Assembly (NCBI RefSeq): GCF_044324785.1
Contig: NZ_CP172127.1
From: Escherichia coli
Lineage (GTDB): Bacteria; Pseudomonadota; Gammaproteobacteria; Enterobacterales; Enterobacteriaceae
Length of the DNA stretch: 64,000 nt
Reading direction: 5' to 3' (one strand)
The position numbers and the translations under genes are program-made. The notes beneath the pieces were generated by a model that was not told the origin of the DNA, did not search any database, and saw only the letters and a list, made by a program, of their open reading frames with translations. Of this stretch, positions 22,745 to 22,812 are shown in pieces (the stretch's first letter is position 1; each line of letters starts with the position of its first letter).

Positions 22745-22812
22745 GTAAATATGAACAGCGGCACTGGTCAGGATGAACGGCTTACGGCAGAATATGAACA
22801 GATATGAACAGA
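22745..22812 (-). promoter_or_regulatory. Tor boxes (TorR binding sites) of the torCAD promoter
   Basis: Four direct decamers: ATATGAACAG at 22749, GGATGAACGG at 22771, ATATGAACAG at 22792 and ATATGAACAG at 22802 (reverse complement CTGTTCATAT). Confidence 0.75.

Follow-up and report, generated by a model that had tools for sequence, protein, structure and literature searches.

The gap between the divergent genes torC and torR poses a compact question: are the repeated decamers that it holds the operator through which the response regulator TorR governs both genes, and what can they tell us about the state of the locus around them? The original prediction had placed three exact decamers at 22749, 22792 and 22802 and a weaker one at 22771, and these coordinates proved right to the base in the window, by which we mean the whole stretch of E. 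coli DNA analysed, at its full length of 64,000 nucleotides. Direct reading of the sequence and an exact-pattern search locate ATATGAACAG three times on the plus strand, at 22749-22758, 22792-22801 and 22802-22811, with no other exact copy on either strand anywhere in the 64 kb. The weak copy, GGATGAACGG, carries three mismatches and occupies 22771-22780. A repeat finder groups the four decamers into a single direct-repeat family of uniform orientation, with start-to-start distances of 22, 21 and 10 bp, and the array spans 22749-22811 (63 bp) inside the 129-bp torC-torR gap, its repeats directed at torC. The sequence from 22740 to 22829 is aatgagtaaATATGAACAGcggcactggtcaGGATGAACGGcttacggcagaATATGAACAGATATGAACAGaatgagtaaaactctctg.

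Read on the torC-sense (minus) strand from the torR side, the order is CTGTTCATAT (22811-22802), CTGTTCATAT (22801-22792), CCGTTCATCC (22780-22771) and CTGTTCATAT (22758-22749). We number the boxes by taking the degenerate one, third from the torR side, as box 3:

22802-22811, minus strand: tor box 1, CTGTTCATAT, nearest torR and half of the high-affinity TorR site; its sequence is the published box 1/2/4 decamer (PMC9239176).
22792-22801, minus strand: tor box 2, CTGTTCATAT, abutting box 1 at 10-bp spacing; the other high-affinity half, the same in K-12.
22771-22780, minus strand: tor box 3, CCGTTCATCC, a low-affinity site matching 7/10 of the consensus and identical to the published box 3 (PMC9239176).
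22749-22758, minus strand: tor box 4, CTGTTCATAT, the box closest to the torC promoter, with 8 bp between its end and the torC -10 hexamer downstream.

Boxes 1 and 2 abut, box 2 to box 3 is 21 bp and box 3 to box 4 is 22 bp, or about two helical turns each. The weak copy is the sole additional site with three or fewer mismatches in the torC-torR intergenic region, and it lies in helical phase with the other boxes, a placement with a chance of about 1.4%. Two neighbouring elements were considered and rejected as parts of the operator. A fifth, degenerate half-site beside box 4, TTACTCATTA, has only 5/10 matches. An exact 10-nt direct repeat, AATGAGTAAA, brackets the array at 22740-22749 and 22812-22821; on the torC strand it reads TTTACTCATT, before box 1 and after box 4, and it is kept at 9/10 positions in K-12. 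A repeat of this length turned up by chance in about 2.3% of simulations of the region, and outside Escherichia its torR-side copy is not kept.

The spacing had been said to match the known TorR operator layout. It does: sequence and spacing are identical to those of K-12, and the decamers are the published tor boxes, of which boxes 1, 2 and 4 are CTGTTCATAT and box 3 is CCGTTCATCC, a low-affinity site conserved at 7/10 positions and dependent on box 4 for its binding (PMC9239176). Tor boxes with TorR binding are also reported from Salmonella enterica (PMC9239176). For TorR binding, box affinities, autoregulation and activation we draw on the literature. In genomic SELEX, TorR gave one peak across the E. 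coli genome, which fell in the torR/torC spacer whether acetyl phosphate was present or not (PMC5934670), and the tor boxes are bound in vivo by both phosphorylated and unphosphorylated TorR (PMC5294996; PMC3680503). That the array activates torCAD and autoregulates torR is supported by published work cited in PMC9436347, PMC5294996 and PMC5934670; the first of these describes torR as negatively autoregulated and TorR as very scarce. Agreement with the published footprint coordinates is probable, as judged from sequence identity with K-12 and from secondary citations. The view that this is known biology was borne out, the array being canonical and already described.

Further details of the operator are said to come from Ansaldi et al. 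in 2000, who reportedly identified boxes 1 and 2 as the high-affinity site, covering the torR start, and reportedly found torR autoregulation to be independent of TMAO and TorS. Induction is said to need the high- and low-affinity sites close together and on the same helix face, and the same authors reportedly emphasized prior binding at boxes 1 and 2. Accounts of the order of cooperative box filling thus differ, one making box 3 depend on box 4 (PMC9239176) and the other reportedly putting boxes 1 and 2 first.

A different possibility is that the boxes mainly serve another regulator, such as ArcA (the closest TorR paralogue), FNR or NarL, with TorR in a secondary role. ArcA-like motifs have been predicted in the torCAD promoter, NarL, Nac and TorI are reported to affect torCAD (PMC10845959; PMC1805755), and ArcA is the second-best family match of TorR. 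In vitro, however, the torCAD promoter was bound by phosphorylated TorR and not by phosphorylated ArcA or FNR (PMC10845959); moreover, the spacer is the single genomic SELEX target of TorR, and the array is found with torR and torC homologues in other genera too, as described below. We therefore regard a principal role for another regulator as very unlikely, and return to TorR as the protein that the boxes serve. The genes on either side of the array are as follows:

22830-23522, plus strand: torR, an OmpR/PhoB-type response regulator and the box binder, matching Pfam Response_reg and Trans_reg_C and the NCBIfam TorR equivalog.
18386-22700, minus strand: the torCAD operon, the activated target, with torC at 21528-22700, torA at 18982-21528 and torD at 18386-18985.
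23495-27350, both strands: torT (23495-24523, minus) and torS (24606-27350, plus), the TMAO sensor pair that phosphorylates TorR.

The position of the array between torC and torR, as originally described, was confirmed by the RefSeq annotation of a near-identical genome (strain N3), which gives the same tor gene coordinates, and by the match of the torR product to the NCBIfam TorR equivalog at 428.7 bits (cut-off 275), with ArcA as the next-best family. The protein combines a receiver domain with a winged-helix domain of the Trans_reg_C type. All of torD, torA, torC, torR, torT and torS have K-12 lengths and normal start and stop codons, without internal stops, and their six products differ from those of K-12 by 1-28 amino acids. 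It could be supposed that the operator is a relic, its boxes persisting while the tor system has decayed in this strain, but among the six tor genes we found no evidence of decay, and the intact reading frames, together with an intergenic region that differs from K-12 at four bases, none of them inside a box, make this extremely unlikely. The original prediction went further in taking the boxes to confirm that the locus is intact: the six genes are indeed full length on a separate check, but the boxes themselves are no proof of intactness.

The window is collinear with N3 from about 14 kb onward. N3, the closest genome, carries three small hypothetical genes between yccJ and agp, and the corresponding part of the window (about 12617-14020) aligns to it only with an offset and breaks; the first 1.5 kb (1-1475) does not align to the N3 stretch compared. 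At about 29809-29830, cspH directly joins appA, and the gfc-etp-etk group 4 capsule cluster, which in K-12 presumably lies between these two genes, is absent from that position. The contiguous cspH-appA junction occurs in 1673 of the 5426 complete E. coli genomes.

How the array relates to the two promoters is less directly read. A consensus scan for sigma-70 promoters and terminators found none in 22600-22900 on either strand, so the torC and torR promoter hexamers are placed from conservation and from PMC10845959; a blank promoter scan is expected where the torC promoter is activator-dependent and torR is very weakly expressed. The elements are:

22735-22740, minus strand: torC -10 hexamer TAAGAT, placed from PMC10845959 and from cross-genus TAnnnT conservation.
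22765-22770, plus strand: putative torR -35 element TGGTCA, a sequence-based candidate inside the box 3-box 4 spacer, below the promoter-scan threshold.
22788-22793, plus strand: putative torR -10 element CAGAAT, a candidate of the same kind, overlapping the edge of box 2.

The torC -10 element has been placed at ...AAGAT (PMC10845959). In the stacked loci, a TAnnnT hexamer stands exactly 8 bp past box 4 in Enterobacterales, Grimontia and Shewanella, reading TAAGAT in Enterobacterales, and since this conserved hexamer agrees with the published element we assign the torC -10 to 22740-22735 on the minus strand, from which torC transcription would start at about 22728. In 2024, the torC 5' leader and the first part of the coding region were proposed to hold a molybdenum-cofactor-responsive element (PMC10845959); the proposed element (leader 22701-22728) matches no known RNA family, such as the Moco riboswitch, in a scan of 22300-23000 on both strands with Rfam covariance models at E up to 1.

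On the torR side, the box 3-box 4 spacer holds GACCAGTG, a motif kept throughout Enterobacterales, in which torR is close by and divergent; the complement of this motif contains TGGTCA. At the edge of box 2, 17 bp past TGGTCA, all Enterobacterales loci have CAGAAT or CAATAT, the one exception being E. coli 2020CK-00188 (CAGCAT). TGGTCA-17 bp-CAGAAT is our candidate for the torR -35/-10 pair, and it would have torR transcription begin near 22800, where box 2 meets box 1. Such a start would fit the coverage of the torR start by boxes 1 and 2 that Ansaldi et al. reportedly described in 2000. GACCAGTG and CAGAAT/CAATAT may be conserved as an embedded torR promoter rather than for TorR binding.

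Within the species, 701 bp of sequence around the site, used as a query, found matches of 95-100% identity in 5417 of 5426 complete E. coli genomes, and the annotation there is torC and torR; the 63-bp array is present in 5415 of them and 100% identical in 5100. Six matches to the torC-torR region fall on records classed as plasmids, and some E. coli genomes hold two copies of it. Against the K-12 derivative DH1, the array is identical column for column, and the 129-bp spacer shows four single-base differences, for example TTTACT versus TTTGCT just past box 4.

Some genomes depart from this pattern. The tandem pair at 22792-22811 has the normal two copies in the window, which thus carries the canonical four-box allele. 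A one-copy tandem box, the result of a 10-bp deletion that leaves a three-box operator, is found in at least 13 complete E. coli genomes and on at least two backgrounds, which differ at box 3 and at the TTTACT/TTTGCT site (JNEC-KY204 and O157:H7 PV15-279); strains in which the allele is also listed include O45:H2 and O166:H15. At least two genomes, among them Z1323HEC0422, carry three copies, a 10-bp duplication that makes a five-box operator. Tandem-box copy number is non-canonical in at most 93 of the 5426 genomes. Separately, at least 106 complete E. coli genomes, for example 99-3311, have box 3 as CCATTCATCC, with A in place of G at its third base (position 22778 of the window), and the same A is present in E. 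coli 2020CK-00188, in a Serratia locus and in Shewanella benthica. The tor locus of 2020CK-00188 (NZ_ABACVG020000001.1), a divergent genome labelled E. coli, has only 80% DNA identity and places torS directly after torR on the same strand, without torT between them, and it keeps the four boxes and their 59-nt span.

With one, two or three copies recorded across complete E. coli genomes, the box 1-box 2 pair seems prone to slippage. A broader joint reading, in which the operator is less fixed than textbooks imply, the tandem pair is prone to slippage, strains differ in regulation as a result and the spacer motifs are the torR promoter, is one that we put forward only tentatively and consider rather doubtful as a whole. 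If it were true, tandem-box copy number could make strains differ heritably in how TMAO induces torCAD and how far torR is autorepressed.

Beyond E. coli, we scanned one genome per bacterial or archaeal species with the pattern TTCATAT-N3-TTCATAT-N(10-18)-TTCAT-N(14-20)-TTCATA, which allows spans of 52-66 nt. Of 30 matches, 17 are linked to tor genes: in Escherichia (coli, albertii and whittamii), Salmonella enterica arizonae/diarizonae, Edwardsiella, Providencia, Serratia, Grimontia and Shewanella. For 15 of these 17 the gene context was checked, the available flanks of two Shewanella loci (L010 and L025) containing no tor protein match, and wherever the flank sufficed the array sits upstream of a torC or torF homologue. 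The span is 59 nt in all 17 tor-linked loci except one Grimontia locus, where it is 60, and in 19 of 20 loci when the window, DH1 and one further E. coli genome are counted. The TTCAT core of box 3 is invariant in position across 19 tor-linked loci; the scan pattern itself demands the TTCAT cores, so that core conservation is partly by construction and independent evidence comes only from the constant span, the neighbouring genes and the positions that the pattern left free. The 13 other matches, in Flavobacterium, Bacilli, Clostridia, archaeal metagenome-assembled genomes and others, were set aside as AT-rich or tandem low-complexity sequence, with spans of 55-59 nt and no tor genes.

In Shewanella frigidimarina (L009, 358-1220), a four-box array lies 48 bp upstream of a gene for a 251-aa TorF-family putative porin; torR comes next, and the opposite strand carries the torC and torA homologues at a distance of about 7-10 kb. 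The TorR site of Shewanella torECAD/torF is said to contain a TTCATA-N4-TTCATA direct repeat, reportedly described by Gon et al. in 2002 and Bordi et al. in 2004.

The notion that the repeats are a functionless chance cluster of similar decamers is vanishingly improbable, for although the weak fourth copy has no significance by itself (the window has 467 sites with up to three mismatches, or about one in every 274 nt of strand), three exact copies fall within 63 bp where 0.13 copies of ATATGAACAG are expected per 64 kb and none of 100 dinucleotide shuffles reaches three, the array is wholly conserved in the great majority of complete E. coli genomes, seven genera repeat this layout and span beside tor genes, and published binding data refute it as well.

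Taken together, the four direct 10-bp boxes in the 129-bp gap between torR and torCAD are almost certainly the canonical TorR operator of E. coli. In the mechanism that we favour, TorR, phosphorylated or not, would occupy the abutting perfect boxes 1 and 2 (22792-22811); because these overlie the likely torR -10 element and start, TorR would block its own promoter, giving negative autoregulation. When TMAO is sensed by TorT and TorS, phosphorylated TorR would then cooperatively fill the weak box 3 and box 4, which lie 21 and 22 bp further on, two helical turns apart, and would present the protein on the same face of the DNA. Box 4 substitutes for a -35 element, ending 8 bp short of the torC -10 hexamer, so TorR bound there could recruit RNA polymerase and turn torCAD on. 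OmpR/PhoB-type activators likewise bind a promoter-proximal site in place of the -35 element (PMC3798270).

The tor-box array is already known, and nothing found here changes the understanding of the Tor system. The value of the analysis lies in annotation, a complete canonical regulatory locus for TMAO respiration with its cis-elements labelled to the base, to which the fixed 59-nt span across genera and the natural one- and three-copy tandem-box variants are small additions. Those copy variants could help to probe how operator copy number tunes the output of a two-component system.

Set against known systems, the closest is the K-12 TorR operator (Simon et al. 1995; Ansaldi et al. 2000), which has the same box sequences, orientation, 10/21/22-bp spacing and place, and the same -10 element, TAAGAT; there is no difference within the array, and the single-base differences, four in all, lie elsewhere in the 129-bp spacer. 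Other gammaproteobacterial TorR operators share the four-box layout, the 59-nt span and the TAnnnT hexamer 8 bp past box 4, whereas they diverge in flanks and spacers, vary in the opening triplet of the decamer (CTG, GTG, TTG or CCA) and do not keep GACCAGTG where torR is not closely divergent. More widely, the repeat spacing and a regulator with receiver and Trans_reg_C domains place the array among the direct-repeat operators of the OmpR/PhoB family. As in pho boxes and multi-repeat ArcA sites, the repeats run head to tail at one- or two-turn spacing (PMC3798270), the promoter-proximal repeat replaces the -35 element and sites of high and low affinity are graded. The tor array differs from these in its TTCATA core, in a tandem period of 10 bp rather than 11 bp, and in serving, as one array, two divergent promoters with opposite outcomes.
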